Positions 2,951 through 62,665 of a DNA stretch of 64,000 nt are shown here, in pieces. This DNA comes from Amphiura filiformis (Eukaryota): positions 18,820,946 to 18,884,945 of the forward strand of contig NC_092647.1 of NCBI RefSeq assembly GCF_039555335.1, given 5' to 3'. The notes under the pieces are model-generated. The model was not told where the DNA came from. It saw only the letters and a list, made by a program, of their open reading frames with translations, and ran no database searches. The position numbers were made by a program, and so were the translations under genes. Numbering within the stretch: the first letter of the stretch is position 1; every line of letters starts with the position of its first letter.

Positions 2951-3009
2951 TTCAAACCATCCAATTTTATATCAAACTTGGGTGAAAAGCTCCACTACCC
3001 CAGCCTTTA

Positions 3010-5581: not shown

Positions 5582-6259
5582 AACGTTTTCGACATCATTC
5601 GCAAAAGGTTATAAAAGGTTGTCGGAAAACGTTTAAATGTCGGGTTATATAAAAGGTACATTAATGGTATAAAACGTCTTCATAACATTAAATAACATTT
5701 GTTGGTAATTTACTGCACAGCAAACACAAATGTTTTACAGAAAATATTTAAATGTCGAGTTATATAAAGGGTATAAAAACGTTTTAATAACATTCCAAAA
5801 ACATTTGTGAAAACTTGGTACAAATCATTCCAAACAGAATGTTATTTTGGGGTTGAAAAAATATTTTGCAAAAAATGTTTGCCCAAAATATTTAAAATAA
5901 CGTTTTTAAAATGTTTTCACGACCTTTATAAAACCCGACATTTAAATGTTATTAAAACGTTTTGTAAAAAACATTTAAAGAACATTTCTGTGTTTGCTGG
6001 GTGCAAATATTTTAATATAATGTTATTTAAGTGTTGACAAAATATTTGACCAAAAATGTTTGCAAAAATAGTTTACAATGACATTTCGAAAACATTTTAA
6101 AAATATTGTTGTAGTGTGTTTTCATACAAAACGTTTTAAAACGATTTCATGACCTTTATATAACCCGACATTTTAATGTTATTAAAACGTTTTACCTAAA
6201 CCAAAACCCAAAATATAACTTATTTAAAACGTTTTAAAAACGTTTTTGTGTTTGCTGGG
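5568..6259. mobile_element. composite MITE-a insertion #1 (692 bp): TIR CCCAGCAAACAC/GTGTTTGCTGGG, flanking TA duplication, internal nested copy 5713-6004
   Basis: The ends are perfect inverted repeats. TA is present at 5566-5567 and 6260-6261. The internal 292-bp unit has its own TIRs of about 70 bp (CAGCAAACACAAATGTTTTA..TAAATGTCGAGTTATATAAA). It is 92% identical to the copy at 56483-57173. Confidence 0.7.
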
Positions 6260-7523
6260 TACCTGACTGTATGAAGCTTTTGTTGCAGATTTGGCAAGTG
6301 TAAGGTTCCTCTTTTGAATGAATTCGTTCATGTATTTTCAAGGCACATGACTGTGTGAAGCCTTTGTTGCAGTATTGGCATATGAAAGGCCTCTCTTTCG
6401 TATGGATTCGTTCATGTATTTTCAAGGCACATGACTGTGTGAAGCCTTTGTTGCAATATTGACATGTGTAAGGCGTCTCGTTGGTATGAAATCGTTCATG
6501 ATATTTCAAGTAACCAGACGTTGTGAAGCCTTTGTTGCAGTATTGGCAAATATAAGGCCTTTCTTTGGTATGTATTCGTTCATGTATTTTCAAGTTCCCA
6601 GACTGTGCGAAGCCTTTGTTGCAGTATTGACATATGAAAGGCTTCTCTTTCGTATGAATTCGTTCATGTGTTTTCAATTCACCAGACTGTGTGAAGCCTT
6701 TGTTGCAGTATTGGCATATGAAAGGCTTCTCTTTCGTATGGATTCGTTCATGTGTTTTCAAGTGACCTGACGTTGTGAAGCCTTTGTTGCAGTATTGGCA
6801 TATGAAAGGCTTCTCTTTCGTATGAATTCGTTCATGTCTTTTCAAGTTACCTGACGTTGTGAAGCCTTCGTTGCAGTATTGGCATATGAAAGGCTTCTCT
6901 TTCGTATGGACTCGTTCATGTATTTTCAAGGCACATGGCTGTGTGAAGCCTTTGTTGCAATATTGACATATGTAAGGCGTCTCGTTGGTATGAATTCGTT
7001 CATGTGTTTTTAAGTTCCCAGACGTTGTGAAGCCTTTGTCGCAGTATTGGCATATGAAAGGCTTCTCTTTCGTATGGATTCGTTCATGTGTTTTCAAGTG
7101 ACCTGACTGTGTGAAGCCTTTATTACAGTATTGACATATGAAAGGCTTCTCTTTCGTATTATTTTGTTTATGTACATTTACCTTACTGATTGAAAACGGT
7201 TTGTCAAAATTTTGACCTTGATAAAATACCAATTGCGAATCGTTCTCATTGGTTGGTTTGCTTGATGAACCATTACCACTTGTCCATTGGTCAAGAGATG
7301 GTGACGTCAAATAACCATCGCTTCTGCTATTATCGGAGGTCTTTATATTTCTGCTTGGAATGGGTATCAATTTCTTCTTATAGTCATACCAATATGCACG
7401 AATCCACAGCTCATGACGCAGATGACGCAGATATCGATGATTATTATTAAAGAACCTTCGTCTGCAATATTTACACACGTGAGGCATCAGGTATTCCCAT
7501 TCTCGTGGTCTTCTTAGAGGCAT
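6234..7523 (-). CDS. ZF gene A: N-terminal domain (about 135 aa) plus 10 C2H2 fingers and the first half of finger 11. The stop is provided by the MITE-a insertion.
   Basis: ORF of 429 aa. ATG at 7521-7523 preceded by ..CATTCATTGCAG. C-x2-C-x12-H-x3-H units with HTKEKP(F/Y) linkers. Confidence 0.8.
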   Translation of the reverse strand: MPLRRPREWEYLMPHVCKYCRRRFFNNNHRYLRHLRHELWIRAYWYDYKKKLIPIPSRNIKTSDNSRSDGYLTSPSLDQWTSGNGSSSKPTNENDSQLVFYQGQNFDKPFSISKVNVHKQNNTKEKPFICQYCNKGFTQSGHLKTHERIHTKEKPFICQYCDKGFTTSGNLKTHERIHTNETPYICQYCNKGFTQPCALKIHERVHTKEKPFICQYCNEGFTTSGNLKRHERIHTKEKPFICQYCNKGFTTSGHLKTHERIHTKEKPFICQYCNKGFTQSGELKTHERIHTKEKPFICQYCNKGFAQSGNLKIHERIHTKERPYICQYCNKGFTTSGYLKYHERFHTNETPYTCQYCNKGFTQSCALKIHERIHTKERPFICQYCNKGFTQSCALKIHERIHSKEEPYTCQICNKSFIQSGTQQTQKRF

Positions 7524-8090: not shown

Positions 8091-8532
8091 TCAAGATTTT
8101 GAGTTGAAACATTTGTGCACAAATTGTGTTTTATGTTACATGTCCTGTTATTGCATTTAGCGCAGCACAATATCTAGGTCTCATCATCAGCGTACCCGAA
8201 ACTGAGTACATGGCAGTCAAATGCAACCCACAGCCACAGACACGACTTCAAGTGTATGAGAGCCTATCAAACATGTATCCAACTTCAAATATCTGGGATC
8301 AATGATGGCCTCTAGTACCAGCGACCGATCCAGACGGAAAGCAGTTCCTTTGACTGGTTTTAGGAAGTATTGGAAGAAGTCCATCAATCTCCATCATAAT
8401 TAAAATCAGGCTTTTCAACATCAACCATACATGCTATTGCCTCAGTAGTTGTGGATCGTAGAGAAACTTAGTAGTCGTCTGCTCCGAATTAAAGTGAAAT
8501 GAAAGAATGCCAAATGTCTCAAAGACTAAATT
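8090..8532 (+). repeat. intergenic spacer segment B of the tandem ZF duplication unit (copies at 28750-28912, 30810-31060, 49795-49930)
   Basis: GTTGAAACATTTGTGCACAAATTGTGTTTTATGTTACAT... and CCAACTTCAAATATCTGGGAT... blocks recur at the listed sites. Confidence 0.5.
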
Positions 8533-9294
8533 TGGAATAGTACAGGGTGTCCCTGAAAGAAATGTATCTTCAGAAACTTAATTGTTTGGGTATTTTAACG
8601 CCACAACTAAACATAACTAAATAATTGACGTGGTTTACATAGGCTTCAATCTGGAAAAACACATCTTATCTAAACCAGTGATGTGCACCCAATCCTGTTT
8701 TTGCTATCGGAAGTTAAAGAAGAAACGAAAAAGGAAAGAAGATGAATAAAGAAGTCACTTGGCAGAGATTCCGTGAGCATATAACACCGGCATATAACAC
8801 TTACAGTGATTGCGTCATCGCAGACCCGGGGATTCACGCATGCGCAGTGGTTTTCATCGTGGTATTTTGTGGTATCTATGGGTGTTAGGGTTAAGGAATA
8901 AATCAGCTATCACATACTTTTTGAATTTTGACAATTGACCTTGCCGTTCTTGAAATATAAGAATTTTACGAAACTCTTTCATTTTCAAACCTTTCCACGG
9001 ATTCAAATATCAATCGATGATCTGTATTCGGAGTGTTAATCACTACGCATAATCAGCGCATGAGGCGTCTATTGTCATTGATAGATATTTGACTCCGTGG
9101 AACGGATTGAAAATGATGCGGTTTCGTGAAATTCTTTTATTTCAAAAACAGAGCGGTCAATTGTAAAAATTCAAAAAGTATGTGATAGCTGATATTCCTC
9201 AACCGCATCAGTTATTTAGTTATGTTTGGTTTATGCGTTAAAATACGCAAAAAAATAAAGTTTCCGACGATAAAGTTCTTTCAGGGACACCCTG
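8533..9294. mobile_element. foldback element (762 bp) with terminal inverted repeats CAGGGTGTCCCTGAAAG and long internal inverted arms
   Basis: 8533-8640 is the reverse complement of 9190-9294. An inner arm pair lies at 8890-9010 versus 9060-9200. It is inserted between spacer segments B and A. The other spacer copies lack it. Confidence 0.6.
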
Positions 9295-10810
9295 TATGTA
9301 AGAGTTGAAACCTAATCAGATCTGATAATTTAACACAATTTGCTGTCTTGAATTTAATACAAAAATAAACATAAACATTTCTGTCGACAGTGTTTGTTAA
9401 AGTTCCTTTAATGATGACTAAGTGCAATTACTAAGCTAAAAGAACAGTATGATATTTGATTGGACCACAACTATTATCAACGTTCAACAGTTCAATATTT
9501 ACTTTTCTTCAACAATCCCAATAAACATACATATGAAAGGAAGTAACCTAACAATATACTTAGCATGATCGTCGTGTAAAGCCGTCAAATATACAGTATT
9601 TAGCAAAAGTGGGTGTTCTTGATGTATTTATCAAAAGCACACTCTGCCAATTAAATTATAATGAACTTCTAAACAAAACTGGATTCAACATCAAGCCAGT
9701 TTACTATGTTTATAATACCATCTCAAAATATTCACGTTTTGTGTAAATATTTTTACAAAACAAAGGACTCCAGACTGAGTCCTCACTCAGGTCCACCAGG
9801 CTGAAAGAAGTAATTCTGTTGGGTCAACTAGACCATGCAATATACAAAACAGAGAACCGTAAAAAAGAACACCTAAATTACCATGCTGCACATTATGAGA
9901 ATAAACTGGGTTTGCTGCAACCATGTATTGTTTGCTTTCGTTTGCAATACATTATAACATGCGCATCTACAATATGGTTCAATTGCAACAAGTTTAAGTG
10001 TACTTACTTGGAAGTGAGCTTAGAGGCTCTCGGATATGACCAGTTAAACGTTTCAGTTGTAGATTGATCACTGCCGTAATCCTGGAATTGACAATTATAA
10101 TTATTTGCTGAGCTTCGAGTGTATTTAACGTAAAAACGTACTTCCACAGCTACTGGATATGGTGGTTTTACGTGCGTTTTTAAAATACCACTGCCCTGTC
10201 CTATGATTCCACATGAGAGTGAACAATAATTAAGTAGGCTATATGTTATCTGGTTTTAAGCAACGCGTCCAAAGGTCGATCGATATGCATACACGATGTA
10301 GAGATTGAAGCTGTGTAATGCACGTTTTTGAATATTGCTCATTGTTCTACTTATTTTGATTGACAGCTACTTAAAGTACCTCTAATGAATGTAAACATGT
10401 ATGTATTGCTTGGAATGAGAACATGATACATTGCGTCGTGATTATGATTGAGTTGAAATCACTTGTATTTCACCGTCAGATTTGTCAAATCCATTTTGTT
10501 AATTGGTAGATTACATTTTGAATCAGGATATCAAGCGGAAACTAGAGCCTCTGCCCTCAATTCGTACATTTTATCAACATCGTTTAATTGCTGGCATATT
10601 CTAATACGCCTAACCTTCTAAAGAAAGAGAGTTTTAGGCTATACATACAACATATACAAAGAATAATAATATGCGTGAATCAAACAGCATGTGTATAAAT
10701 ATTAACTCTATAATCTTTATGTAAAAGTTTTACAAAAGATTTCTGTATCTTTTACGCTCGCTTGTGTAATTTTATTATGATTCTTATGAATTTCTTCTTT
10801 CACATTGGAT
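9295..10810 (+). repeat. intergenic spacer segment A (copies at 24240-25300, 31060-31900, 37255-38170, 49930-50720), ending in a relic finger-like sequence
   Basis: Multi-hundred-bp identity among the five copies, all in + orientation. The terminal CACATTGGATGTGTGAAGAGCTTTATGTGCAAGG resembles a degenerate ZF unit. Confidence 0.5.
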
Positions 10811-19677: not shown

Positions 19678-21193
19678 CAAACTGTGTAGACTCTCATTCA
19701 TCTGGGTATGTTGAAATTAAGATTTAATTTAAATCTGGTCAACCAGACATACCTATTTTTGACGGACGAACCGACGTTGCGACTGAAACCTTCAGTCTTC
19801 AGCTGGGTTGTGATGCAAATGACCTTGAGTACCGGACACTTCCGGTATTGATGACAATCGACGAGGAATGTCCTTTATGATCCTGTCCCAGCCGTGTGAA
19901 CACTTCATGAACGGACAAACTTGTCTCCTGATCAATTATGTGATCTACTTAGTCTCTGCTTAGATAACACCTACTTTTCGTACAGTGGAAAATTTTACCA
20001 ACAATGTCATGGATGTTCCATGGGTTCGCCCGTCTCACCGATTATCGCTAACTTGTATATGGAAAGATTTGAGCGCATTGCTTTGTCAATTTTTCCCGGT
20101 ATAGCGCCATCTAGATGGTATCGATACGTGGATGATACTTGGATTTTAATTAAATCCAACGAACTTGATAGGTTTTTCAACCACATCAATGAAATCGATC
20201 CCCATATCAAGTTCACGCAGGAAGGAGTGTCAAATAACAAACTCGCGTTTCTTGACTGTTTAGTGTCCGTGGAAGAAGATCGCTCCCTTACTGTGTCTGT
20301 TTATCGAAAACAGACACACACGGACCAGTACCTTCAATTCGGTTCCAATCACCCGCTCATTCAGAAACTCGGCGTGGTCAACACCTTGTTCCACAGAGCT
20401 GAGTCGATCATCACCAAAGACTCAGATAAGATTGCTGAACAACAACATCTTCGCAAAGCGCTGGGTAACTGTGGTTACCAGGACTGGGCCATAAACAAGG
20501 CCTTGAACAAGGACAGCAATAAACCCACCGCCAGTAGCACGAATCAGACGGGGAGAACAACAAGTATTACCATCCCATATCACGGAGACTTATCGGAAAA
20601 ACTCAAAAGAATCTATCGCGACCACGGAATTACCACCCACTTTAAACCAACGAACACGATCCGCCAGTCCTTAGTGCATCCCAAGGACAAGCAGCCCAAG
20701 GGGAGAATCAGTGGAGTGGTCTACGGGGTCCGCTGTTCCGAAGAGCAAGCCTGTCAAGACTCTTACATAGGAGAAACCGCCCAACCTCTTCACAATCGCA
20801 TGTTACAACATCGCAGAGCCAGCTCAGGTGGAAACGACTCATCAGTGTATTTACATTTGAAAGCCACCGGACACCATTTTGACACCAAGGATGTCCGAAT
20901 CCTAGATCGCGAGCATCGTTGGTTTGAGCGTGGAGTGAAAGAGGCAATCTGGGTGAGGGCTGAGCAACCATCCCTCAACCGCGGTGGCGGTGTCCGGGCC
21001 AAACTATCACACGGCTGGGACAGGATCATAAAGGACATTCCTCGTCGATTGTCATCAATACCGGAAGTGTCCGGTACTCAAGGTCATTTGCATCACAACC
21101 CAGCTGAAGACTGAAGGTTTCAGTCGCAACGTCGGTTCGTCCGTCAAAAATAGGTATGTCTGGTTGACCAGATTTAAATTAAATCTTAATTTC
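19678..21193 (+). mobile_element. truncated Penelope-like retroelement with inverted-repeat termini of about 195 bp (19713-19899 versus 21007-21193) and a 10-bp TSD TCTTTTGTAT
   Basis: Inverted repeats are near-perfect. TSD at 19668-19677 and 21194-21203. The right IR encodes the last 36 aa of the ORF. Inserted in a ZF finger. Confidence 0.8.
19921..21114 (+). CDS. Penelope-like RT (C-terminal motifs, YVDD) fused to a GIY-YIG endonuclease
   Basis: GSPVSPIIANLYME, WYRYVDDTWIL, then GVVYGVRC..YIGET (GIY-YIG). Confidence 0.8.
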   Translation: MSPDQLCDLLSLCLDNTYFSYSGKFYQQCHGCSMGSPVSPIIANLYMERFERIALSIFPGIAPSRWYRYVDDTWILIKSNELDRFFNHINEIDPHIKFTQEGVSNNKLAFLDCLVSVEEDRSLTVSVYRKQTHTDQYLQFGSNHPLIQKLGVVNTLFHRAESIITKDSDKIAEQQHLRKALGNCGYQDWAINKALNKDSNKPTASSTNQTGRTTSITIPYHGDLSEKLKRIYRDHGITTHFKPTNTIRQSLVHPKDKQPKGRISGVVYGVRCSEEQACQDSYIGETAQPLHNRMLQHRRASSGGNDSSVYLHLKATGHHFDTKDVRILDREHRWFERGVKEAIWVRAEQPSLNRGGGVRAKLSHGWDRIIKDIPRRLSSIPEVSGTQGHLHHNPAED

Positions 21194-22839
21194 TCTTTTG
21201 TATGATTTTTGTCATGTGTTTTCAAGTCACTAGACTGTGTGAAGCTTTCTTTGCAGTATTGGCACATGTAAAGCTTCCCTTTGGCATGAAGTAGTTTATG
21301 TGTTTTCAAGTTACCTGACTGTGTGAAGCATTTGTTGCAATATTGGCACATGAAAGGCTTCTCTTTCGTATGAATTCGTTCATGTATTTTCAAGTAACCA
21401 GACGTTGTGAAGCCTTTGTTGCAGTATTGGCATATGAAAGGCTTCTCTTTGGTATGAGTTCGTTCATGTGTTTTCAAGTTACCAGACTGTGTGAAGCCTT
21501 TGTTGCAGTATTGACATATGAAAGACTTCTCTTTCGTATGAATTCGTTCATGTCTTTCCAAGTCAACAGACCGTGTGAAGCCTTTGTTGCAGTATTGGCA
21601 TTTATATGGCTTCTCTTTGGTATGAGTTCGTTCGTGTGTTTTCAAGTGATTAGACTGTGTGAAGCCTTTATTACAGTATTGGCATATATAAAGCTTGTCT
21701 TTGGTATGAATTCGTTCGTGTGTTTTCAAGCTATTTGACCGTGTGAAGCATTTGTTGCAATATTGGCACATGTAAGGTTTCTCTTTCTTATGAATTCGTT
21801 CATGTGTTTTTAAGTTCCCAGATTGTGTGAAACCTTTGTTGCAGTATTGGCATATGAAAGGCTTCTCTTTGGTATGGATACGTTCATGCCTTTTCAAGTG
21901 ACAATAATGTGAGAAGCCTTTGTTGCAGTATTGACATGGGTACGGCTTCCCTTTTGTATGAATTTGTTCATGTGTTTTCAAGTCACTAGACTGTGTGAAG
22001 CATTTGTTGCAGTATTGGCATATGTTAAGCTTTCCTTTGGCATGAAGTAGTTCATGTGTTTTCGAGGTACCTGACTGTGTGAAGCATTTGTTGCAATATT
22101 GGCATATGAAAGGCTTCTCTTTCGTATGAATTCGTTCATGTGTTTTTAAGTTCCCAGACGTTGTGAAGCGTTTGTCGCAGTATTGGCATATAAAAGGCTT
22201 CTCTTTCGTATGAATTCGTACATGTATTTTCAAGTAACGAGACTGTGCGAAGCCTTTGTTGCAGTATTGACATATGTTAGGCTTCTCTTTCGTATGAACT
22301 CGTTCGTGTGCTTTCAAGTTACTAGACTGTGCGAAGCCTTTGTTGCAGTATTGACATATGTAAGGCTTCTCTTTCGTATGAATTCGTTCATGTCTTTCCA
22401 AGTCAACAGACTGTGTGAAGCCTTTGTTGCAGTATTGGCATATGTAGGGCTTCTCTTTTGTATTATTTTGTTTATGTACGTTTACCTTACTGATTGAAAA
22501 CGTTTTGTCATAATTTTGACCTTGGTAAAATAACAGTTGCGAATCGTCCTCCTCGTTCGTTTTTTTGCTTGATGAGTCATTACCACGTGTCCATTGGTCA
22601 GGAGAGGGTGACGTCAGAAAACCATCGCTTCTGCTCTTATCGGAGGTATTTATATTTCTGCTTGGAATGGGTATGAACTTCTTCTTATACGAGTAGTCAT
22701 ACCAATATGCACGAATCCACAGCTCATGATGACGCAGATGATGAAGATATCGATGATTATTATTAAAGAACCTTCGTCTGCAATATTTACACACGTGAGG
22801 CATCAGGTAATCCCATTCTCGTGGTCTTCTTAGAGGCAT
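21055..22839 (-). CDS. ZF gene B: N-terminal domain plus about 16 fingers. The last 46 codons (21055-21193) are read-through into the Penelope IR.
   Basis: MPLRRPREWDYLMPHVCKYCRRRFFNNNHRYLHHLRHH... ATG at 22837-22839 preceded by TTTCAG. Confidence 0.75.
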   Translation of the reverse strand: MPLRRPREWDYLMPHVCKYCRRRFFNNNHRYLHHLRHHELWIRAYWYDYSYKKKFIPIPSRNINTSDKSRSDGFLTSPSPDQWTRGNDSSSKKTNEEDDSQLLFYQGQNYDKTFSISKVNVHKQNNTKEKPYICQYCNKGFTQSVDLERHERIHTKEKPYICQYCNKGFAQSSNLKAHERVHTKEKPNICQYCNKGFAQSRYLKIHVRIHTKEKPFICQYCDKRFTTSGNLKTHERIHTKEKPFICQYCNKCFTQSGTSKTHELLHAKGKLNICQYCNKCFTQSSDLKTHEQIHTKGKPYPCQYCNKGFSHYCHLKRHERIHTKEKPFICQYCNKGFTQSGNLKTHERIHKKEKPYMCQYCNKCFTRSNSLKTHERIHTKDKLYICQYCNKGFTQSNHLKTHERTHTKEKPYKCQYCNKGFTRSVDLERHERIHTKEKSFICQYCNKGFTQSGNLKTHERTHTKEKPFICQYCNKGFTTSGYLKIHERIHTKEKPFMCQYCNKCFTQSGNLKTHKLLHAKGKLYMCQYCKESFTQSSDLKTHDKNHTKEKLRFNLNLVNQTYLFLTDEPTLRLKPSVFSWVVMQMTLSTGHFRY

Positions 22840-26828: not shown

Positions 26829-27245
26829 GGCGTCTCTTTGGCATGACTTCTCTCATGTGTTTTCAAGTTACCTGACTTTGTGAAGCCTTTGTTGCAGTAT
26901 TGACATATGTAAGGCTTCATTTTTGTATGAATTCGCTCACGTGATTTCAAGTTACCTAACTGTATGAAGCCTTTGTTGTAGTATTGACATTATGTAAGGT
27001 TTCTCTTTGGTATGGATACATTCATGTCTTTTCAAGCTACCTGACTGTGTGAAGCCTATGTTGCAGTATTGGCATAGGTAAGGCTTCTCTTTAGTATGAA
27101 CTTGCTCATGTGTTTTGAAGTCACTAGACTGTGTGAAGCATTTGCTGCAGTATTGGCATATGTAAAGCTTCCCTTTGGCATGGAGTAGTTCATGTGTTTT
27201 CAACTTACCTGACTTTGTGAAGCCTTTGTTGCAGTATCGGCACAT
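26702..27245 (-). CDS. ZF gene C distal fingers (two ORF pieces, 26952-27245 and 26702-26950, separated by 1-bp indels), ending inside the MITE-a
   Basis: Finger motifs. The C-terminus ..HAKETPQQTQHVSDN.. is encoded by the MITE-a TIR. Confidence 0.6.
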
Positions 27246-28555
27246 GTAAGGCTTCTCTTTGTATGAATTCGTTCATGTGTTTTTAAGTTCCCAGATTGTG
27301 TGAAACCTCTGTTGCAGTATTGGCATATGAAAGGCTTCTCTTTGGTATGGATACGTTCATGCCTTTTCAAGTGACAATAATGTGAGAAGCCTTTGTTGCA
27401 GTATTGACATGGGTACGGCTTCCCTTTTGTATGAATTTGTTCATGTGTTTTCAAGTCACTAGACTGTGTGAAGCATTTGTTGCAGTATTGGCATATGTTA
27501 AGCTTTCCTTTGGCATGAATTAGTTCATGATATTTCAAGCTGCTTGATTGTGTGAAGCTTTTGTTACAGTATTGACATACATATGGCTTTTTGTTGGTAT
27601 GGATTCGTTCATGTGTTTTCAAGTTACTTGACTGTGTGAATCCTTTGTTGCAGTATTGGCATACATATGGCTTTTTGTTGGTATGGATTCGTTCATGTGT
27701 TTTCAAGTTACTTGACCCTGCGAAGCCTTTATTGCAATATTGGCATATGAAAGGCTTCTCTTTCGTATGAATTCGTTCATGTACTTTCAGGTCATCAGAC
27801 CGTGCGAAGCCTTTGTTGCAGTATTGGCATAGGTAAGGCGTTTCTTTCATATGAATTCGTTCATGTCTTTTCAATTCACCAGACTGTGTGAAGCCTTTGT
27901 TGCAGTATTGGCATATGTAAGGTTTCTCTTTCGTATGAATTCGTTCATGTCTTTTTAAGTTCCCAGAGTGTGTGAAGCCTTTGTTGCAGTATTGGCATAT
28001 GAAAGGCGTCTCTTTCGTATGAATTCGTTCATGTGTTTTCAAGTTACCATACTGTGCGAAGCCTTTGTTGCAGTATTGACATATATAAAGCTTCTCTTTG
28101 GTGTGGATTCGTTCGTGTGTTTTCAAGCTACTTGACCGTGTGAAGCCTTTGTTGCGGTATTGGCATATGAAAGGCTTCTCTTTCATATTATTTTGTTCAT
28201 GTACGTTTACCTTACTGATTGAAAACGGTTTGTCATAATATTGACCTTGGTAACATAACAGTTGCGAATCGTCCTCCTCATTCGTTTTTTTGCTTGTTGA
28301 GTCATTACCACGTGTCCATTGGTCAAGAGATGGTGACGTCAGAAAACCATCGCTTCTGCTATCGGATGTATTTATATTTCTGCTTGGAATGGGTATCAAC
28401 TTCTTCTTATAGTCATACCAATATGCACGAATCCACAGCTCATGATGACGTAGATGACGCAGATATCGATGATTATTATTAAAGAACCTTCGTCTGCAAT
28501 ATTTACACACGTGAGGCATCAGGTATTCCCATTCTCGTGGTCTTCTTAGAGGCAT
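27200..28555 (-). CDS. ZF gene C: N-terminal domain plus about 11 fingers
   Basis: ORF of 451 aa. ATG at 28553-28555 preceded by TTTCAG. Confidence 0.8.
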   Translation of the reverse strand: MPLRRPREWEYLMPHVCKYCRRRFFNNNHRYLRHLRHHELWIRAYWYDYKKKLIPIPSRNINTSDSRSDGFLTSPSLDQWTRGNDSTSKKTNEEDDSQLLCYQGQYYDKPFSISKVNVHEQNNMKEKPFICQYRNKGFTRSSSLKTHERIHTKEKLYICQYCNKGFAQYGNLKTHERIHTKETPFICQYCNKGFTHSGNLKRHERIHTKEKPYICQYCNKGFTQSGELKRHERIHMKETPYLCQYCNKGFARSDDLKVHERIHTKEKPFICQYCNKGFAGSSNLKTHERIHTNKKPYVCQYCNKGFTQSSNLKTHERIHTNKKPYVCQYCNKSFTQSSSLKYHELIHAKGKLNICQYCNKCFTQSSDLKTHEQIHTKGKPYPCQYCNKGFSHYCHLKRHERIHTKEKPFICQYCNRGFTQSGNLKTHERIHTKRSLTCADTATKASQSQVS

Positions 28556-28750: not shown

Positions 28751-28914
28751 ATTCAAGATTTTGAGTTGAAACATTTTTGCACAAATTGTGTTTTATGTTA
28801 CATATACTGTTATTGCATTTAGCGCAGCACAACATCTAGGTCTCATCATCAGCGTACCCACAACTGAGTACATGACAGTCAAATGCAACCCACAGCCACA
28901 GACACGACTTCAAT

Positions 28915-28996
28915 ACAACACAATACACTACAATACAATACAATACAATACAATACAATACAATACAATACAATACAATGCAATACAATACAATAC
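28915..28996. repeat. (CAATA)n microsatellite, about 16 units
   Basis: Read directly. Confidence 0.85.
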
Positions 28997-30809
28997 AAGG
29001 AGTATTTGCGCCATTTCCAAAAGGCTCAGAGCGCTTACAATATAAAAACCTTAAGGGCGTACTACACCCATATATTGGTTTGATTGGTCTAAAAAAATAT
29101 TTTTTCATTTATAGCGAGGCGATATATGCACGGATCATGTGAGATAAAAATTTTTTTAAAAAAATAAATAAAAAAAGGTGCTTTTAAACCATTGTATAGT
29201 AAGTCATTTTAGCCCTATATATTTTTTTGTTTACCGTATCCTGGTAACTCAGATGCGTGTTTCATAACAAACCATAATTTATTCTTTTCAACATGTTCAA
29301 GTAGGGTACATGAATAGAATACATTAAATCCTTTGTTATACTCTCTATAGAAAATCTAGTGGTGCTTGCAAAATATATAACACTGAATAAATTAAATAAA
29401 CACTTACACAATAGATGCATAGTCATTAGTCAATTTGATATTGATGTTGTTATTGATGTGTTGTTAGGAGAAGAAAAGGCTATTAGGTCACCGTATGTCA
29501 GGTTATAGGTCAATTGGTTCAGGTCAAATTTAAGCATCAATTTTGAATACACATGTGAGAGTCTGTGATACAAAATGTATCATAATGAGGAATAATTTTG
29601 ATATTCTGTCTTTAACTGGATATATATCGAGAAGTGCAAGGTGGATATACTAATATACCTTGGGATGTAAATGGTGAGTACAATTTAGAATGCCTAGTTG
29701 AGATAGATTTCACAAATAAATATAAAATAGTTACCAAAATCACAAAAGTTACTCTTACGGAAAAATACTCAATATGGTGGTATAGGCGACAAGAAATACA
29801 ATTTTTTTCAACATTGCTGTAGTATGGTTGTGGTAACCTGTTACCTATGGCTTAATTAAGTTTCAGTGAAATAATGTCGTAAGTTAAAAATACAAAATAT
29901 AGCTCAACATTGAAAATAGAAGCATTTTAACCAGTTCCTTTTTGATAGTTGTGGAGCACCAAGTTCATGAAGTCATAAAAGAAATCAGGAACCACTTATT
30001 CCCATTTTACATATCAACTTTATTTCCCTAACGTGTTAGCAACACATATCCAAAATTTTAACGAAATCCGTTGATATTAAGCTTTCCAAAATGAAGTGAA
30101 TTTAAATCATCAGTGATGTACCACCTTTTGGCTTCTACTTTTAAAAGCATGTGAGCTACGTTGATACCGATGCCACCAATAAAACGAGATGATTTGCCCC
30201 TTCATTTTGCATACCACTTTGTCCAATTTTTTTTGTAATTTCTTCACAAAATGCAAAAAATGCAAAAAAAAAAAATCAATGGGTGTAGTACCCCTTAATA
30301 TTACCACTTAAAACTATACATTTGTATAGGTGCATCTTAAAAAATATAAAATTACAATATCAATTAAAAACAGGTTACGGAAGCAAATAAGTTTTTTCAA
30401 AACCATCAAAACATCCAACAGGAAAAAAATCAACTGGCAACACAGTCAACAAGTCAATCACCAAAAAATCAATAGGTGATTGGATGACCAGTTCACAGTA
30501 CTTAGCAGTCTTCATTCAGTGTTGATAAAGATAACCGAGTGGTTATCGAAACGTACACAGTAAGTGCAATTTATTGGATCAGAAATAGAACCTTTTGATT
30601 GAAGTTTTTTCAGAGCTTTTAAAAACATTTTTGTAGATGAAGATTGTCTAATATAGACAGGTAACTTATTCCACTCTTTTGATGCAGAAACTGTGAAAGT
30701 TCTATCGCCAGCTAATAATCTAGTGATGGGATAGTCAAGACGAAGATACTCATTGCAAAATCGGAGTTGCCTCTTTGGAACATATAATGATAAACAATTT
30801 TTAAATTAG

Positions 30810-38805: not shown

Positions 38806-39278
38806 GGGGTGGTGCAATAATTATGTGTACCCCGGGGTGAATTCTCAAAATGGTCTGCCAAAATCGCTTGCCCCCCTTTGGCCGTGCCAAAAACCTTTTC
38901 CCCCCTTTCGACATGCCAAAAACCTTTGCCCCCCCCTTTTGACGTGCCAAAAATCTTTGCCCCCCTTACACATGCAAGATTTTGGGGAACCCGAATTTAA
39001 AACCTTAAATTGTCTTAACATATATTGCGAGCGCAGCGAGCAGGAAATTTTGCATATTTGAACGTGTTCGTAACGTTTTCCTACGCCTTTTAGGGCGTAA
39101 TATAGAAACGGTGCCCAAAATATCTGTGCCAAAAATTGCTTGCCCCCCCTTTCGACCTGCCAAAATCGCTTGACCCCCCTTTCGACCTGCCAAAAATGCT
39201 TGCCCCCCTTTTGGCCTGCCAAAAATCTTGCCCCCCTATAATTCACCCCGGGGTACACATATAATTATTGCACCACCC
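38806..39278. mobile_element. MITE-c (473 bp): TIRs of about 35 bp, GGGGTGGTGCAATAATTATGTGTACCCCGGGGTGAATT, TAA flanks, two arms each carrying 4 direct 25-bp subrepeats (TGCCAAAAATCGCTTGCCCCCCTTTCGACC)
   Basis: Read directly. TAA at 38803-38805 and 39279-39281. Confidence 0.65.
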
Positions 39279-44360: not shown

Positions 44361-46236
44361 TAATGATACTGAGATAAAATTGTTACTAATTTTGAGTTAG
44401 ATTCAGAATGCCAAAATCGGGGACTTCACAAGTGAAAAAAAAATTTCCACCATACTCCCATGGGACCAGGATTTGTACCATTCGAGAATCGAGACAGTAA
44501 CGTTTGCTTACTACTTACTTGAGAACTCTAGCTTCAAATTTGCACACAATAGTTTTACATGTACAGCTTTGTACGCATTCGATGCTATCATGCTCGAGTC
44601 CATTTGCTATCATTATTTCAGTGGATCTGCCAATCAGCACTGACATGTAATATTTCTGCTGATTTTGATGCAAGTTAAAATTTGATTGAGTCAACTGTGT
44701 ATTTTAAGGAAATGCTGCCTATTTTTAACAGTCTAATATTTAGTTGAAGTGCAAACTGCAATTTTAGCAACATTTTTGATACGATCTCCAGCAGTGATCG
44801 GCTGTATTTACTTACAGCTTCCCTAGCCATTGATTTCTAAGTACTAGATTTTGATAGGTCAGGACTCGTCTTTAAATAGTGTGAAGCTATCTGTGACAAA
44901 TTCGAAGCTAGACTTCTCGTACAAGCGTTCATGTGTATTGTGTAATTACACACACAATCACATGTTTATAAATTAACACTGTTTGAAGGCCGCAGTCACC
45001 TCGCACCACATCCCGAACCCCGAAGAATCCCTAAGTATAATATGTTGTAGTAAACCTTTGATGAGCCCGTACGTACCGTGATGTTGCAAAGTCAGAGCTA
45101 ACAATGTGTTATGTACGGCACAAAGTTAATTTGTAAATTTCCACTGACTCCACATCAGCAGATCACCTCTGCAGAGCTCTGCAGACAACAATCAGACAAG
45201 TGTGTTCCAACAAATGACTGAGTAAATTTTGTGATGTACACTCTCGTCAAAGGTTTACTCATGTACTCCAAACGCCATGCCATCAGACAGAATCAGTATC
45301 ATGCATGCATGCAATGGCTAGTATTATAATATATTTATAATATTCCAGTGTAATAGTATGTGTGCCATGTACAAATGTGAAATGATGTAAACATTCATTG
45401 TAATGTACAGATGACAGATGTATCATGCACGGGATCATGCAGGAATTTTAGACGGGACTATATGGACCTAGCCTGCGCCTGTCGAGCTGTATCAATAAAA
45501 TCAACAGAAATCAGTTCGTTAAGTACTTACTTTCTCGTTTTGAGATTTTCTTTCGTGCTCAAAATTACCAAATAGATGTTGAAAATTCGTTCAATTTTCA
45601 ATCAAATCTGCTCCCGTTGACAGATCGTGCCACGGCGAACGAAATCAATCAGCTGTTCAAAGGTCAAATCAAATTGATCAGGTCAACAGTCACTTCCGTT
45701 TCCCCGAAATATGGGGAACCAATCAGAAGAGTCGTTATATGTGCTCTTTTGCAGACTGTTTGTTAGGAGGATCGACGAGTGTCAGACCGACGCAAACTGG
45801 CTGTGTAGGAGACTACTGCCAGGTAAAGCGTTTAAATGACGTCAGGTCAGTTACCAATTTAATGGACGAAGCCGTTTGCCCGAAGCAATGATACCACTTG
45901 TATGAGTAGCCAGTCGGCAAATATTTATTTTTCAACCTCATTGTATACACCACCAAATTCTTTCGACAAGTTTTTTTTAATTACACGTTACCTCTCGTAG
46001 GTTCTAGATGAATAAGAAGAGGTGTTTGTACACTACCGAAGAACGAAGAATAACGGACGGAGATTCAGTGAAGAAAGAAATTGTTCTAGATACACACCAT
46101 ACACATCGAACTTCTATTGACGCAGTACTAAAGCACTTACTTTGCTGAGAAAAGTAAGCACAAGTACACGTGGATTGATTTATTATAGGACTTGAGTTTG
46201 GAATCTTACCTTCAGAATTTCATAGACTAATGACTA

Positions 46237-46462
46237 CCCAGCAAACACACAGCGTTTTACAGAACATGTTTAAATGTCGGGTTATATAAAAACGTTCTAA
46301 TAACATTCATAAAACATTTTTGAAAGCGTGATGCAAAATATTTTAACAGAATGTTATTTAACTGTTGACAAAATATTTTGCCAATCTTAATATCATGACA
46401 TTTAAATGTTATTAGAAAAAACGTTTTGAATAACCGTTTTAATAACATTTTAGTGTTTGCTA
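46237..46462. mobile_element. solo MITE-a unit (about 225 bp), TA-flanked on the left, right TIR degenerate
   Basis: TA+CCCAGCAAACACACAGCGTTTTAC..TAAATGTCGGGTTATATAAA..AATAACATTTTAGTGTTTGCTAG. Confidence 0.55.
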
Positions 46463-46578: not shown

Positions 46579-47241
46579 TTAAGGGCTGGGGTATGAACGT
46601 TTGGACAGTATTTATTGTGGGACATTAGAGCACATCAGACATGTCGAATTGCATTCTGAATACGAAGAATGTCATTCTGATATCAAATAATTTTGATTTT
46701 TGAAATTCGCAATTTAATACACATTTTATGGCAAATCATTAAAATTGATATTTTTGATATTTAACAGTACTTGAAGTAAACTTTATAAATCTGATGATTT
46801 ATACTTAAAGTGTATGTAGGTGGGATGAAAAGCCGACGATCAATTGAAAATTTTGACCTTTCGTATTGAAAATATGGATTTTTTCCCAAAACACCAAAAA
46901 AATTAGGTCTTTTGGGAAAAAAATCCATATCTTCAATATGAAAGGTCAAAATTTTCAATTGACCGTCGGCTTTTCTCCTGCTACATACACTTTAAGAATA
47001 TGTCATTAGATTTATATAATTTACTTCGAGGACTGTTATATATCAAAAATTTGAAAAATATCAAATTTTTACAATTTGTCATAAAATTTGTATTATATTG
47101 TGATTTTCAAAAAATGGAAATTATTTAATATCAGAAAGACATGCTTCGTATTCAGAATGCAATTCGATAGGTCTGAGGTGCTCTCATGTCCCATAAAAAA
47201 TACTGTCGAAACGCAATAAACGCTCATTTTAGATCCCTTAA
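46579..47241. mobile_element. TTAA-flanked foldback element (655 bp, 46583-47237) with termini GGGCTGGGGTATGAAC.../...GATCCC
   Basis: TTAA at 46579-46582 and 47238-47241. The arms are near-perfect reverse complements meeting at about 46905. A near-identical copy lies at 59425-60091. Confidence 0.7.
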
Positions 47242-48352: not shown

Positions 48353-49357
48353 TTACAGTATTGACATAATTATGTAAGGCTTCTCCTTGGTATGGGTTCG
48401 TTCATGTCTTTTCAAGTGACCAGACGTTGTGAAGCTTTTGTTGCAGAGTTGGCATAAGTAAGGCTCCTCTCTCGTATGAATTCGTTCATGTGCTTTCAAG
48501 CTACATGCCTGTGTGAATCCTTTGTTGCAGAATTGGCAAGTATAAGGTTTTTCATTGGTATGAATTCTTTCATGTCTTTTCAAGCTATATGACAGTGTGA
48601 AACCTTTATTGCAGTATTGGCATTTGTAAGGCGTCTCTTTGGTATGAATTCTTTCATGTGCTTTCAATCCACTAGACTGTGTGAAGCCTTTGTTGCAGTA
48701 TTGACATGTGAAAGGCTTCTCTTTGGTATGAATTCGTTCATGTGTTTTCAAGTGACAAGACTGTGTGAACCCTTTGTTACAGTATTGGCATATGTAAGGC
48801 TTCTCTTTCGTATGAATTCGTTCATGTCTTTTCAAGCAACTTGACTGTGTGAAGCATTTGCGGCAGTATTGGCATATGTAAGGCTTCTCTTTGGTATGTG
48901 TTCGAGTGTGTTCTTTCAAGTCACATGACTGTGTGAAGCCTTTTTTACAGTATAAACATATGTAAGGCTTATCTTTGATGTGGGTTCGTTCATGTACGTT
49001 TATATTACTCACGATTGGAAACGTTTTTTCATAACGTTCACCTTGGTAATATTCCAATTGCGAATCGTTCTCATTCATTTCTTTGCTTATTGAGTCATTT
49101 CCACGTGTCCAATGGTTTAGAGATGGTGATGTCAGAAAACCATCTGTTCTGCTATCATCGGCGATGCTTATCTTACTGCTTGGTATTGGTATCGGTATCA
49201 ACTTCTTCTTATAGTCATACCAGTATGCACGAATCCACAGCTCATGATGACGCAGATGACGAAGATATCGATGATTATTATTAAAGAACCTTCGTCTGCA
49301 ATATTTACACACGTGAGGCATTAGATGGTCCCATTCTCTTGGTCTTCTTAGAGGCAT
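48353..49357 (-). CDS. ZF gene E: N-terminal domain plus about 7 fingers
   Basis: ORF of 334 aa. ATG at 49355-49357 preceded by TTTCAG. Confidence 0.8.
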   Translation of the reverse strand: MPLRRPREWDHLMPHVCKYCRRRFFNNNHRYLRHLRHHELWIRAYWYDYKKKLIPIPIPSSKISIADDSRTDGFLTSPSLNHWTRGNDSISKEMNENDSQLEYYQGERYEKTFPIVSNINVHERTHIKDKPYICLYCKKGFTQSCDLKEHTRTHTKEKPYICQYCRKCFTQSSCLKRHERIHTKEKPYICQYCNKGFTQSCHLKTHERIHTKEKPFTCQYCNKGFTQSSGLKAHERIHTKETPYKCQYCNKGFTLSYSLKRHERIHTNEKPYTCQFCNKGFTQACSLKAHERIHTREEPYLCQLCNKSFTTSGHLKRHERTHTKEKPYIIMSIL

Positions 49358-50720: not shown

Positions 50721-51354
50721 ATTAGATAAATGTCAACCTTGAGCGCAGAACTTTTGTAATCACAGCCCCATGAAATTTGGCACGGATGTAGAGGTTTCAA
50801 CCTTCAAACTCAAATAGAGAGCTTTTTAAAAATATTTGCTCAGTTTTTGAAGAAAAAGGTGATTTTCCCAATTTTTGGCTGGAAAATACGTAATTTGGAT
50901 TTTAACGATCTCGATACCCTAATTAATATAGATTTTAAAAGTTTATAACCATAGTAGCCATACCAAAATTCATGAATTTATGAATTGGAAGTAAAAATCC
51001 TGTCCGCAATGTGATCTACCTAAAAATCCAAGATGGCCGCCGTTTCTATGTCAACCATATGCGCGGACATTTTCTTCCGCCCATTCAAAATAGTTTCACC
51101 TGAGTACCATGAAAATAGGACCAATATTGCTTTTCCCTCGCAAGCTCTACCTACAACATAGAAAATAATATAAAATAGATTAGAAAATATTGATGAAATA
51201 GCAAGTTTATATTCAAAGGAATCCAAACTAATACAAGAAATATTAGGGGGACAATTTATCTTTATTGAGCTTAATTTTCATCATAAAGTAGCTTCACAGA
51301 GAAATAGGATACGCAAAAAATGCATTGCTAGTGTAAAAATGTGTTTTGTAAACA

Positions 51355-51500
51355 TATTACATAAACATAGATTCGGGGCTGTGCAATATTATTGAGCCTC
51401 CAGGGTCAAAATTTCAAAACGGCGTGCCAAAATACTCTTCCCACTCTCGGCCTGCCAAAAAAATGCTTCCCTTCCCCACTCGGCCTGCCCAAAATATCCT
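51355..51500. mobile_element. MITE-c fragment
   Basis: GGGGCTGTGCAATATTATTGAGCCTCCAGGG..CGGCCTGCCAAAAAAATGCTTCCC subrepeats. Confidence 0.4.
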
Positions 51501-56494: not shown

Positions 56495-57173
56495 AAAACG
56501 TTTTCGACATTATTCGCAAAAGGTTATAAAAGGTTGTCAGAAAACGTTTAAATGTCGGGTTATATAAAGGGCATATTAAGGGTATAAAACGTTTTCATAA
56601 CATTGAAAATCATTTTTTGATAATCTACTGCTCAGCAAACAAAAATATTTTACAGAAAACGTTTAAATGTCGGGTTATATAAAGGGTATAAAAACGTTTT
56701 AATAACATTCCAAAAACATTTTTGAAAACTTGATACAAAACATTCTAAACAGAATGTTATTTTGGGAGTTGAAAAATATTTTGCGAAAAATGTTTGCCCA
56801 AAATATTTGCAATAACGTTTTGAAAACGTTTTCATGACCTTTATATAACCCGACATTTAAATGTTATTAAAACGTTTTGAAAAAAACATTTTAAGAACAT
56901 TTCTGTGTTTGCTGGATGCAAATATTTTAACATAATGTTATTTAAGTGTTGACAAAATATTTGGCAAAAATGTTTGCAAAAAAGTTTACAATAACATTTT
57001 GAAAACATTTTAAAAATATTGTGGTAGTGTGTTTTCATACAAAACGTTTTAAAACGTTTTCATGACCTTTATATAACCCGACATTTTAATGTTATTAAAA
57101 CGTTTTTATGTAAACCAAAAACCAAAATATAACTTATTAAAAACGTTTTTAAAACGTTTTTGTGTTTGCTGGG
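56483..57173. mobile_element. composite MITE-a insertion #2 (691 bp), AT duplication at 56481-56482 and 57174-57175
   Basis: Same four-part internal structure, about 92% identical to 5568-6259. Perfect TIRs CCCAGCAAACAC/GTGTTTGCTGGG. Confidence 0.7.
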
Positions 57174-58642
57174 ATGTAAGGCGTCTCTTTGGTATGAATT
57201 CGTTCATGTATTTTCAAGTTATATGACCGTATGAAGCATTTATTACAATATTGGCATATGTAAGGCGTCTCTTTGGCATGAGTTTGTTCATGTACTTTCA
57301 AGTTACCTGACTTTGTGAAGCCTTTTTTACAGTATTGGCATATGTAAGGCTTCTCTTTGGTATGGATTCGTTCATGTTCTTTCAAGTGACCTGACCGTGG
57401 GAAGCCTTTATTACAATATTGACATATGTAAGGCTTCTCTTTCGTATGAATTCGTTCATGTGTTTTCAAATGACATAACTGTGTGAAGCCTTTGTTGCAG
57501 TATTGGCATATGTAAGGCGTCTTATTGGTATGAATTCGTTCATGTGATTTCAAGTGGCCAGACGTTGTGAAGCCTTTATTACAATATTGACATATGTATG
57601 GCGTCTCTTTGGTATGGATTCGTTCATGTGTTTTCAAGGGACTTGACTGTGTGAAGCCCTTATTACAGTATTGACATATGTAAGGCTTCTCTTTCGTATG
57701 AATTCGTTCATGTGTTTTCAAATGACATAACTGTGTGAAGCCTTTGTTGCAGTATTGGCATATGTAAGGCGTCTTATTGGTATGAATTCGTTCATGTGAT
57801 TTCAAGTGGCCAGACGTTGTGAAGCCTTTATTACAATATTGGCATATGTATGTCGTCTCTTTGGTATGGATTCGTTCATGTGTTTTCAAGTGACTTGACT
57901 GTGTGAAGCCCTTATTACAGTATTGACATATGTAAGGCTTCTCTTTCGTATGAATTCGTTCATGTGTTTTCAAATTACATAACTGTGTGAAGCCTTTGTT
58001 GCAGCGTTTGCATAGGTAAGGCCTCTCTTTGGTATGATTTAGTTCATGATTTTTCAAGCTATGTACATATGGAAACCCTTTATTGCAAAACTGACATAGG
58101 TACGGCGTCTCCTTGGTATGAATTCGTTCATGTCTTTTCAAGTTACCTGACTGTGTGAAGCCTTTTTTACAGTATTGACATATGTAAGGCTTCTCCTTGG
58201 TATGGATTCGTTCATGTACTTTCAAGTTACTTAACTGTGTGAAGCCTTTATTACAGTATTGACATATGTAAGGCTTCTCGGTTCGTTCATGTACTTTTAC
58301 CTTACTCCTGGTTGGAAACATTGTCTCATAATATTCACCTTGGTAAAATACCAATTGCGAATCGTTCTCCTTCGTTTGTTTGCTTGATGGGTCATTTTCA
58401 CCTGTCCATTGGTCAAGAAATGGTAACGTCAGAAAACCGCCTTTTCTAATGGCATCGGAGATGTTTATATTTCTGCTTGGAGAGGGTATCATCAACTTCT
58501 TCTTATACCAGTATGCTCGAATCCACAGCTCATGACGACGTAGATGACACAGATATCGATGTGTATTATTAAAGAACCTTCTGCAATATTTACACACGTG
58601 AGGCATCAAGCACTGCCATTCTCGTGATCCTCTTGGAGGCAT
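57149..58642 (-). CDS. ZF gene G: divergent N-terminal domain (MPPRGSREWQCLMPHVCKYCRRFFNNTHRYLCHLRRH..) plus 13 fingers. The stop is provided by the MITE-a.
   Basis: ORF of 497 aa. ATG preceded by TTGTTCCAG. Confidence 0.8.
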   Translation of the reverse strand: MPPRGSREWQCLMPHVCKYCRRFFNNTHRYLCHLRRHELWIRAYWYKKKLMIPSPSRNINISDAIRKGGFLTLPFLDQWTGENDPSSKQTKENDSQLVFYQGEYYETMFPTRSKVKVHERTEKPYICQYCNKGFTQLSNLKVHERIHTKEKPYICQYCKKGFTQSGNLKRHERIHTKETPYLCQFCNKGFPYVHSLKNHELNHTKERPYLCKRCNKGFTQLCNLKTHERIHTKEKPYICQYCNKGFTQSSHLKTHERIHTKETTYICQYCNKGFTTSGHLKSHERIHTNKTPYICQYCNKGFTQLCHLKTHERIHTKEKPYICQYCNKGFTQSSPLKTHERIHTKETPYICQYCNKGFTTSGHLKSHERIHTNKTPYICQYCNKGFTQLCHLKTHERIHTKEKPYICQYCNKGFPRSGHLKEHERIHTKEKPYICQYCKKGFTKSGNLKVHEQTHAKETPYICQYCNKCFIRSYNLKIHERIHTKETPYIPANTKTF

Positions 58643-59424: not shown

Positions 59425-60091
59425 TTAAGGGCTGGGGTATGAACGTTTGGACAGTATTTATTTTGGGACATTAGAGCACATCAGACATATCGAATTGCAT
59501 TCTGAATACGAAGAATGTCCTTCTGATATGAAATAATTTTGATTTTTTGAAATTCGCAATTTAATACACATTTTATGGCAAATCATTAAAAATTGATATT
59601 TTTGATATTGAACAGTACTCGAAGTAAACTTTACAAATTTGATGATTTATACTTAAAGTGTATGTAGATGGGATGAAAAGCCGACGATCAATTGAGAATT
59701 TTGACCTTTCGTATTGGAGATATGGATTTTTTCCCCAAAACACCAAAAAAAAGGGTCTTTTGGGACAAAAATCCATATCTTCAATATGAAAGGTCAAAAT
59801 TTTCAATTGACCGTCGGCTTTTCCTCCCAGCTACATACACTTTAAGAATATATCATTAGATTTATATAATTTACTTCGAGGACTGTTATATATCAAAAAT
59901 TTGAAAAATATTAAATTTTCATAATTTGTCATAAAATTTGTATTATATTGTGATTTTCAAAAAATGAAAATTATTTGATTTCAGAAAGACATGCTTCGTA
60001 TTCAGAATGCAATTCGATAGGTCTGAGGTGCTCTCATGTCCCTCAAAAAATACTGTCGAAACGCAATAAACGCTCATTCTAGATCCCTTAA
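59425..60091. mobile_element. second copy of the TTAA-flanked 655-bp foldback element
   Basis: TTAA at 59425-59428 and 60088-60091. About 95% identical to 46583-47237. Confidence 0.7.
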
Positions 60092-60119: not shown

Positions 60120-61020
60120 ACACTCAGAACGCCACTGACTATCATCTATTGTTATGCATAGTCGCGCTAAAAGTTCACAGATACACCTTTTTGCTATGAA
60201 ATTCATTTTCTCGGTCAAATATAAAGAAATATTTTTTTCTTTAGTAATGTCAGTTAAAAACATAGTGCGTACCTTTTTTAGAACAAAATCTTGGTGTTAA
60301 AATTAGGCATAAAATAAATTGTGTCTTTCAGTATAAGATTTTTGATTTTTACAGGTCTCAACTTCGCCCGTGAGCTTTTTGCTTATTTTTTTTTGGCGTT
60401 TGAAACTAATATAGTTTGCTAAAGAAAGATATTTCCCACCTCTGTACTAAGGCACATCATGTGGGGCTATATATTGTAGTTTTGTCGGAATATCCGTTTT
60501 CACTTGCGACTGCCAAAATGTCCAACCAGTACAAAAATGTACTTCATTTCTAATAAAACTAGCAGACATAATCGATATTTCTATTGTGGCTTGCAAAATC
60601 ATCCATCCATGGGTACATTCGGGAGTTGATTTTGACAATATTGGTAGTCGGAATTGAAAAATGGTGCCGCAGAACCTGACAAAATTCTGACAAAACTATG
60701 ACATATAGTTTTACATAATGTGCTTTAGAAAGTTGGGAAATATCTTTCGTTAGCGAATTATGTTACTTTGAAAAGCAAAAACGTTGACCCAAAAAAGCTC
60801 GCGGGGCAAGTTGAAGCCTGTGAAAATCAAACATCTTACACTAGAAGCCTAAATTTCACACCTAAGTTTAACATCAGGTTTTAATAAAATATACAGCATC
60901 TATCATTATAGTTTTCTTCTGACATTTGCCGAAGAAATGAAAATTATTGGTTTTCATTTGACCGAGAAAATTAATTATGAAGTGAAAAGATGTAACTAAA
61001 AAATTTGCTAATTTCAACTC
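60120..61020. mobile_element. large foldback of about 900 bp (nested inverted arms: 60352-60447 versus 60725-60825, and 60150-60230 versus 60900-60990)
   Basis: CAGGTCTCAACTTCGCCCGTGAGCTTTTT is the reverse complement of AAAAAAGCTCGCGGGGCAAGTTGAAGCCTGTG. CATTTTCTCGGTCAAAT pairs with ATTTGACCGAGAAAATTAAT. Confidence 0.5.
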
Positions 61021-62302: not shown

Positions 62303-62665
62303 TTAAGGGGGTACTACACCCCTGTAGTAAATGTGTGACTATTTTTGCATTTTTCTCAAAAATTAATAACACACTTGTAACAAAAGTTAAGTATATTATT
62401 GGGGTAAGGAATCCAATTACTACACTGAAATTTCAGTGACTCAAGACAATCGGTTCAGTAAATATGATAGGAAATGAGGTACATCCTAGCGGTACCTCGT
62501 TTTCTATCATAAGTATCGAACCGCTTGTCTTGGGTCACTGAAATTCCAGTGTAGTAATGGAATTCCTTGCCCCTATAATACACTTTTGTTACCAATGTGT
62601 TATTAGTTTTTGAGAAAAATGCAAAAATAGTCACAAATTTATTGAGGGGTGTAGTACCCCCTTAA
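62303..62665. mobile_element. TTAA-flanked foldback MITE (355 bp, 62307-62661) with TIR GGGGGTACTACACCCCTGTAGTAAATGTGTGACTATTTTTGCATTTTTCTC...
   Basis: TTAA at 62303-62306 and 62662-62665. The arms are near-perfect reverse complements. The central hairpin is at about 62480. Confidence 0.7.

Follow-up and report, generated by a model that had tools for sequence, protein, structure and literature searches.

TTAA-flanked foldback elements of probable Kolobok type in a zinc-finger gene cluster of Amphiura filiformis

Background

Autonomous elements of the Kolobok superfamily encode a DDD/E transposase with a C/DxxH signature, often together with a THAP domain. The superfamily is characterised by TTAA-specific 4-bp duplications and by termini that are 5'-RR and YY-3', 'unlike piggyBac' (PMC9587614). 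The T2-MITEs of Xenopus combine TTAA with a terminal AGGRR, and the ends of full-length Kolobok elements from Xenopus include AGGGGAACTATCATGA and AGGGGATCTATCATGA (PMC6004289). The terminal repeats of piggyBac begin CCYT and are 12–19 bp in length (PMC5601938). It is standard practice to class non-autonomous elements by their termini and duplication, for which the Repbase rule is a terminal alignment over positions 1–11 with no more than one mismatch to a classified element (PMC4455052).

The window, which is the whole stretch of 64,000 nucleotides of Amphiura filiformis DNA analysed here, holds two copies of one foldback element (family A, c1 and c2) and two related elements with different termini (family B, c3 and c4). 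Their coordinates, and those of a paralogous site lacking c1, are given in Table 1. It is very likely that all four are TTAA-inserting non-autonomous DNA transposons.

Table 1. Coordinates of the TTAA-flanked elements and of the c1 empty site within the window
Feature	Position	Strand	Remarks
c1 left TTAA target-site duplication	46579..46582	.	read from sequence
c1, family A foldback, 655 bp	46583..47237	+	hairpin centre near 46892-46910
c1 right TTAA target-site duplication	47238..47241	.	read from sequence
c1 paralogous empty site	51237..51457	+	second copy of c1's host repeat; reads GTAGCTTCACAGAGAAA
c2 left TTAA	59425..59428	.	read from sequence
c2, family A foldback, 659 bp	59429..60087	+	orientation same as c1
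c2 right TTAA	60088..60091	.	read from sequence
c3 left TTAA	62303..62306	.	read from sequence
c3, family B foldback, 355 bp	62307..62661	.	perfect 17-nt terminal inverted repeat GGGGGTACTACACCCCT
c3 right TTAA	62662..62665	.	read from sequence
c4 left TTAA	29051..29054	.	c4 absent from the sequence-only reading
c4, non-foldback, non-coding, family-B termini, 1240 bp	29055..30294	+	GGGCGTACTACACCCAT... and ...ATGGGTGTAGTACCCC
c4 right TTAA	30295..30298	.	read from sequence

Genomic setting

The window is eukaryotic, with approximately 36% G+C, and its minus strand carries C2H2 zinc-finger ORFs in a tandem cluster, in which an 84-bp tandem repeat corresponds to the 28-residue finger unit. Between these ORFs are others from non-LTR retrotransposons. 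Five of the minus-strand C2H2 ORFs are paralogous (6234–7523, 21055–22839, 27200–28555, 48353–49357, and 57149–58642) and share an N-terminal region of ~130 aa, MPLRRPREW..HVCKYCRRRFFNNNHRYLRHLRHHELWIRAYWYDY. This region matched nothing in Pfam, and as a 134 aa query it retrieved no homologue from 5.8 billion proteins, and exact-protein look-ups of three zinc-finger ORFs returned no match. A full zinc-finger ORF gave generic C2H2 matches only, at no more than 57% identity, with the brittle star Amphiura among those named. The family of five paralogues looks lineage-specific. The best protein match to the LINE ORF has 69% identity; the contigs of two of the LINE matches share only the LINE, at ~72% nucleotide identity, and there is no MITE on them.

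Several other repeats are present in the window. A 187-nt inverted repeat (19713–19899 and 21007–21193, 100% complementary) flanks a 397-aa ORF at 19921–21114 that encodes a reverse-transcriptase domain, appears on visual inspection to contain a GIY-YIG-like motif, and looks Penelope-like. The right arm of this repeat runs into the 3' end of the zinc-finger ORF at 21055–22839; the structure reflects either an insertion of very recent date or an error of assembly. The 756-bp element at 8541–9296 has 47-nt terminal inverted repeats (TA-CAGGGTGTCCCTGAAAG...CTTTCAGGGACACCCTG-TA), resembles a Tc1/mariner-type MITE in its TA flanks, and holds nested inverted repeats at 8578–9258 and 8902–9193. A 2.8-kb element at 1236–4045 has 50-nt inverted repeats (92%) starting ATGTGATGCGATCAAG, with mirrored ORFs of ~120 aa at both ends (1247–1633, minus strand, and 3675–4034, plus strand), an arrangement implying terminal inverted repeats far longer than 50 nt. 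The motif AACGTTTAAATGTCGGGTTATATAAAGG occurs in clusters of inverted copies at 5628–6180 and 56543–57093, which lie between zinc-finger ORF segments and occupy matching positions in two paralogous genes; similar sequence is present at ~46233–46460, in the left flank of c1. A 137-aa ORF at 38845–39258 is composed of GGKxFWQVERG-type repeats, is a short tandem repeat at the DNA level, and has no Pfam match.

TTAA flanks and the c1 empty site

TTAA is present on both sides of c1, c2, c3, and c4, at all eight flanks, and each element begins GGG and ends CCC. The frequency of TTAA in the window is 0.0084 per position, such that two TTAA flanks would be expected by chance at ~7e-5 per element, and none of the 16 remaining inverted-repeat pairs has such flanks. 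TTAAGGG is found 16 times in the window, where 8.2 ± 2.6 are expected; the excess of 8 equals the eight ends of c1 to c4. The sequence-only reading had placed TTAA on both sides of the three foldbacks, and its coordinates for them are exact. It had also named copies of the elements without TTAA flanks as the observation that would count against it. The nearest available test of this is c4, which has TTAA on both sides. No further elements were found in the window through a scan for TTAA-flanked terminal repeats, the pairing of all TTAAGGG sites, or searches with mismatches for the family A ends.

The repeat into which c1 is inserted is dispersed and has a second copy in the window, in which there is a single tetramer, TTCA at 51293–51296, at the site that in the occupied copy reads GTAACTTAA(c1)TTAACAGAGAAA. 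The left 60 nt of the empty site align to the c1 flank with a score of 23, compared with 4.7 ± 2.0 for shuffled sequences, none of which reach it (0/2000), and 23 of 30 positions match in the ungapped alignment. The right 170 nt are ~80% identical to the c1 flank, and the homology crosses the junction from both sides. Compared in this way, the empty site sets the boundaries of c1 at GGG...CCC and has one tetramer in the unoccupied state, as judged from a paralogue that is only ~80% identical and that carries TTCA rather than TTAA; the palindromic TTAA also fits parsing of the duplication as TA or TAA. The 4-bp parsing is favoured because all eight flanks are full TTAA and because of the symmetry of the ends. 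The search for an empty site had been proposed from the sequence and was successful for c1, while none was found in the window for c2, c3, or c4.

No similarity exists between c1 and c2 in the 600 bp that flank them. Membership in the segmental duplications that formed the cluster is therefore ruled out, and the two copies are independent insertions. Insertion into TTAA, as had been suggested, is thus supported by the paralogous empty site of c1, the unrelated flanks of c1 and c2, and the TTAA-flanked c4.

Structure of the family A foldbacks

The termini of c1 are GGGCTGGGGTATGAACG... (5') and ...CGCTCATTTTAGATCCC (3'). Alignment of c1 and c2 has 629 identical columns out of 661 (95.2%), which agrees with the 95% identity given in the sequence-only reading; of the differing columns, 8 are indels and 24 are substitutions (K2P 0.038). 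The two copies are 13 kb apart and in one orientation, a spacing that is compatible with local hopping but is no proof of it. The c2 copy lies upstream of the minus-strand zinc-finger ORF at 57149–58642, ~790 bp from its ATG. Directly downstream of c2, at 60179–60997, is a degraded foldback of ~819 bp with arms that are ~70–73% complementary and without TTAA flanks.

Folded as single-stranded DNA, c1, c2, and c3 have energies of -222.6, -222.5, and -136.1 kcal/mol, respectively, corresponding to z-scores against shuffles of -25, -37, and -26. Each forms a single long hairpin, as had been recognised from the sequence, yet the description of these as near-perfect was too strong: identity of each element to its own reverse complement is 80–85% with gaps, or 85–89% at aligned bases. 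There is no long ORF in any of the three. In the family A folds the outer 15 nt at the 5' end and 24 nt at the 3' end are unpaired, and the terminal inverted repeat is poor, with matches at 13 of the first 20 positions. The two ends have in common GGG/CCC plus ATGARCGTTT and nothing else. The reverse complement of the 3' end of c1 and c2 is GGGATCTAAAATGAG, in which the G-richness stops after GGG. The ends of the elements had been called G-rich; all of them do start with GGG, but past these three bases the term does not apply to this end of family A.

Within family A elements the arms differ by 12–15%, compared with 3.7% between corresponding arms of c1 and c2. Because the divergence between arms exceeds that between copies, the imperfect palindrome is, on this comparison, taken to have been present already in the common source of c1 and c2. 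The substitutions between the copies are 16 transitions and 8 transversions, with no compensatory pairs among the 24, in what is a low-power test. The pattern looks like neutral decay and gives no hint of selection on the hairpin, at this low power.

The centre of c1 has 21 sub-threshold Rfam matches to unrelated families on both strands, the best of them at 72 bits where the gathering threshold is 83 bits. The possibility that c1 is an Rfam miRNA hairpin (MIR7504, mir-548, and others) was rejected, as the matches are below the gathering threshold and are scattered over families and both strands, which is a generic resemblance to AT-rich hairpins.

The family B elements and a possible origin of c3

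The sequence of c3 is unrelated to c1 and c2. A profile of the c3 arms identified a related terminus at 30192–30294, and the sequence GGGGTACTACACCC, with as many as 2 mismatches allowed, is present at 4 sites in the window where 0.08 are expected. These 4 occurrences form two inward-facing pairs, each abutting TTAA, and thereby define a fourth element, c4. The terminal repeat of c4 is only 26 nt (81%). No ORF above 65 aa was found in its six frames, nor any Pfam match.

When the terminal repeat is excluded, the ~125 nt 3' subterminal region of c4 resembles both arms of c3, with scores that are reached by 0/1000 and 7/1000 shuffles, whereas the 5' subterminal region has no resemblance to the c3 arms. 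Since it is the 3' region rather than the 5' region that matches both arms, c3 probably arose when the 3' end of an element resembling c4 was duplicated in inverted orientation.

The surroundings of c4 differ between the zinc-finger paralogues. It is hosted by an insertion of ~1.9 kb (28914–29054 and 30299–30809), relative to the paralogous upstream region at 8251–8272. That region lacks the whole insertion, having 24 unrelated bases instead, and is otherwise 95–97% identical. The insertion begins with a (CAATA)n microsatellite at ~28914–28995, which suggests that the host is probably a retroposon on the minus strand, with (TATTG)n as its tail.

Superfamily assignment and alternatives

The 4-bp TTAA duplication of Kolobok is seen at 8 of the 8 flanks, together with the single tetramer of the c1 empty site, and c1 to c4 all have 5'-RR...YY-3' termini, a low-information feature that ~1 in 4 symmetric ends would possess. 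The elements share the TTAA duplication with piggyBac as well, but not the CCYT start, their ends being GGGCT, GGGAT, GGGGG, GGGCG, and GGGGT. They have the characteristics of MITEs, in that they are short and non-coding with terminal inverted repeats and a target duplication; c1 to c3 are 355–659 bp, while c4, at 1240 bp, exceeds typical MITE length. No transposase was found in the 64-kb window. It is considered probable that c1 to c4 are non-autonomous, MITE-like elements of Kolobok type with two families of termini, inserted at TTAA and moved in trans. The superfamily is here assigned solely from the features of the ends and the duplication. The elements would add members to an already known type of transposon, and as such are an ordinary feature.

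The sequence-only reading had observed that the GGG termini are unlike those of piggyBac, which is correct given the CCYT start of the piggyBac terminal repeats (PMC5601938). From this it had suggested a different TTAA-targeting group. Such a group is unneeded, as TTAA with 5'-RR...YY-3' is diagnostic of Kolobok, one of the two possibilities that had been named (PMC9587614, PMC6004289).

Direct comparison of the ends with 13 published Xenopus Kolobok ends is only suggestive. The c3 end matches at 8 of 11 positions in register, which 12% of shuffles reach, and the c1 3' end at 9 of 11 with a 2-nt offset, reached by 4% of shuffles; this likeness is treated as a lead rather than as a test. Scans with conserved 17-28-mers from families A and B gave no match in viral, metagenome, and genome collections, which include neither the source genome nor its close relatives. 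The c3 17-mer did have 7 single matches in bacterial genomes, with no inverted partner; ~70 would be expected by chance in 596 Gb and these were dismissed as chance occurrences.

The features used for the assignment carry little information, and the similarity of the ends to published Kolobok repeats is not significant when the G-rich start is allowed for. Both points would be accommodated by another or an undescribed TTAA-preferring cut-and-paste lineage, for example Sola-type, having GG ends that match the Kolobok rule by chance. Sola-type families generate 4-bp duplications. However, TTAA and RR...YY occur together in two unrelated families, a literature search found no link between Sola and TTAA, and no new group is required by the data, leaving this explanation unlikely. 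An origin from piggyBac, as MITEs that have atypical termini and depend on a transposase of that superfamily for mobilisation, is distinctly unlikely. Although the TTAA duplication is common to piggyBac and the 17-nt terminal repeat of c3 is inside its 12–19 bp range (PMC5601938), all eight ends are GGG rather than CCYT or CCC, and the Kolobok literature separates both superfamilies by exactly this end difference (PMC9587614).

Because of the palindromic nature of TTAA, the empty site does not distinguish between duplications of 2, 3, and 4 bp. The elements could in principle be Tc1/mariner-type, with a TA duplication and AGGG...CCCT ends, or PIF/Harbinger-type, with TWA and GGG ends, the outer T and A being present by chance. 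The ends of PIF/Harbinger and Tourist elements do often begin GGG or GGC. Mis-parsing of this kind is nevertheless highly improbable: in eight complete TTAA flanks, the bases outside the shorter duplication would match by chance at ~1e-4 for TA (8 positions) or ~0.01 for TWA (4 positions), by arithmetic from the window composition with T or A at ~0.32 each. The 3-bp TWA duplication of PIF/Harbinger (Tourist-like) elements is not what is seen, since full TTAA at all eight flanks and symmetric ends favour 4 bp, and a 3-bp parsing leaves the ends asymmetric by one base despite the perfect repeat of c3. A repeat-rich region containing a tandemly duplicated zinc-finger gene cluster is also one in which local palindromes, segmental duplication, or assembly artefacts might mimic mobile elements. 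This is scarcely credible here in light of the unrelated c1 and c2 flanks, the precise TTAA boundaries, and the paralogous empty site, while an arm divergence of 12–15% means that these are not chimeric-read palindromes.

Proposed mechanism, age, and significance

For the preferred Kolobok-type assignment, a Kolobok DDE transposase supplied from another locus in the genome would bind the terminal and subterminal repeats, excise the element, and integrate it at TTAA, with repair of the 4-nt staggered cut generating the TTAA duplication. The c1 to c3 foldbacks would be miniature derivatives, consisting mostly of an inverted duplication of one end, that subsequently spread. In relative terms c1 and c2 are young compared with the host repeat of c1, differing by 3.8% where the repeat copies are ~80% identical. 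The suggestion of recent mobilisation therefore holds only in a relative sense: the copies are relatively young (3.8% K2P), their duplications are intact, and their substitutions look neutral, but they need not be active at present. It is very unlikely that families A and B were moved by a TTAA-targeting lineage that is neither piggyBac nor canonical Kolobok, and/or that the hairpins, which have 300-bp arms and are within ~1 kb of the lineage-specific zinc-finger ORFs, are transcribed and feed small-RNA control of the cluster.

For annotation purposes, c1 to c4 should be masked as Kolobok-type non-autonomous elements, rather than being regarded as regulatory palindromes or assembly artefacts. 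The empty site of c1 serves as a within-window proof of element boundaries, and the c3/c4 pair may be a small, clean example of a foldback MITE arising by inverted duplication of one end. To our knowledge there has been little biochemical characterisation of the Kolobok superfamily. The termini could be used as genome probes for an autonomous, possibly still active, Kolobok transposon, with TCGAATTGCATTCTGAATACGAAG as the probe sequence for family A, the ends of which are GGGCTGGGGTATGAACG and GGGATCTARAATGAGCG, and GGGGGTACTACACCC as that for family B.

Comparison with known elements

In having long inverted arms that make up most of the element, the foldbacks are similar to Drosophila Foldback (FB). 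The arms of FB are built of tandem subrepeats and its insertions have 9-bp duplications, whereas the arms here are of unique sequence and the duplication is TTAA. The long AT-rich near-palindromes are also shared with the hairpin MITEs that are precursors of miRNAs and siRNAs, such as mir-548 and several plant MIR families, although the c1 matches are all below the gathering score. The elements resemble piggyBac-derived MITEs in being non-autonomous and in having short terminal inverted repeats and a TTAA duplication, but start with GGG where piggyBac has CCYT (PMC5601938).

The T2-MITEs of Xenopus (Xmix and others) likewise have a TTAA target and a 4-bp duplication, and are short, non-coding, and dispersed near genes (PMC6004289, PMC9587614). 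The termini are purine-purine in both, being AGGRR in T2 and GGGGG, GGGCG, GGGCT, or GGGAT here. The Amphiura elements differ in that the first base is G instead of A, with the first 11 nt matching Kolobok ends at 8–9 positions, and in that c1 to c3 are each nearly one hairpin over their whole length.
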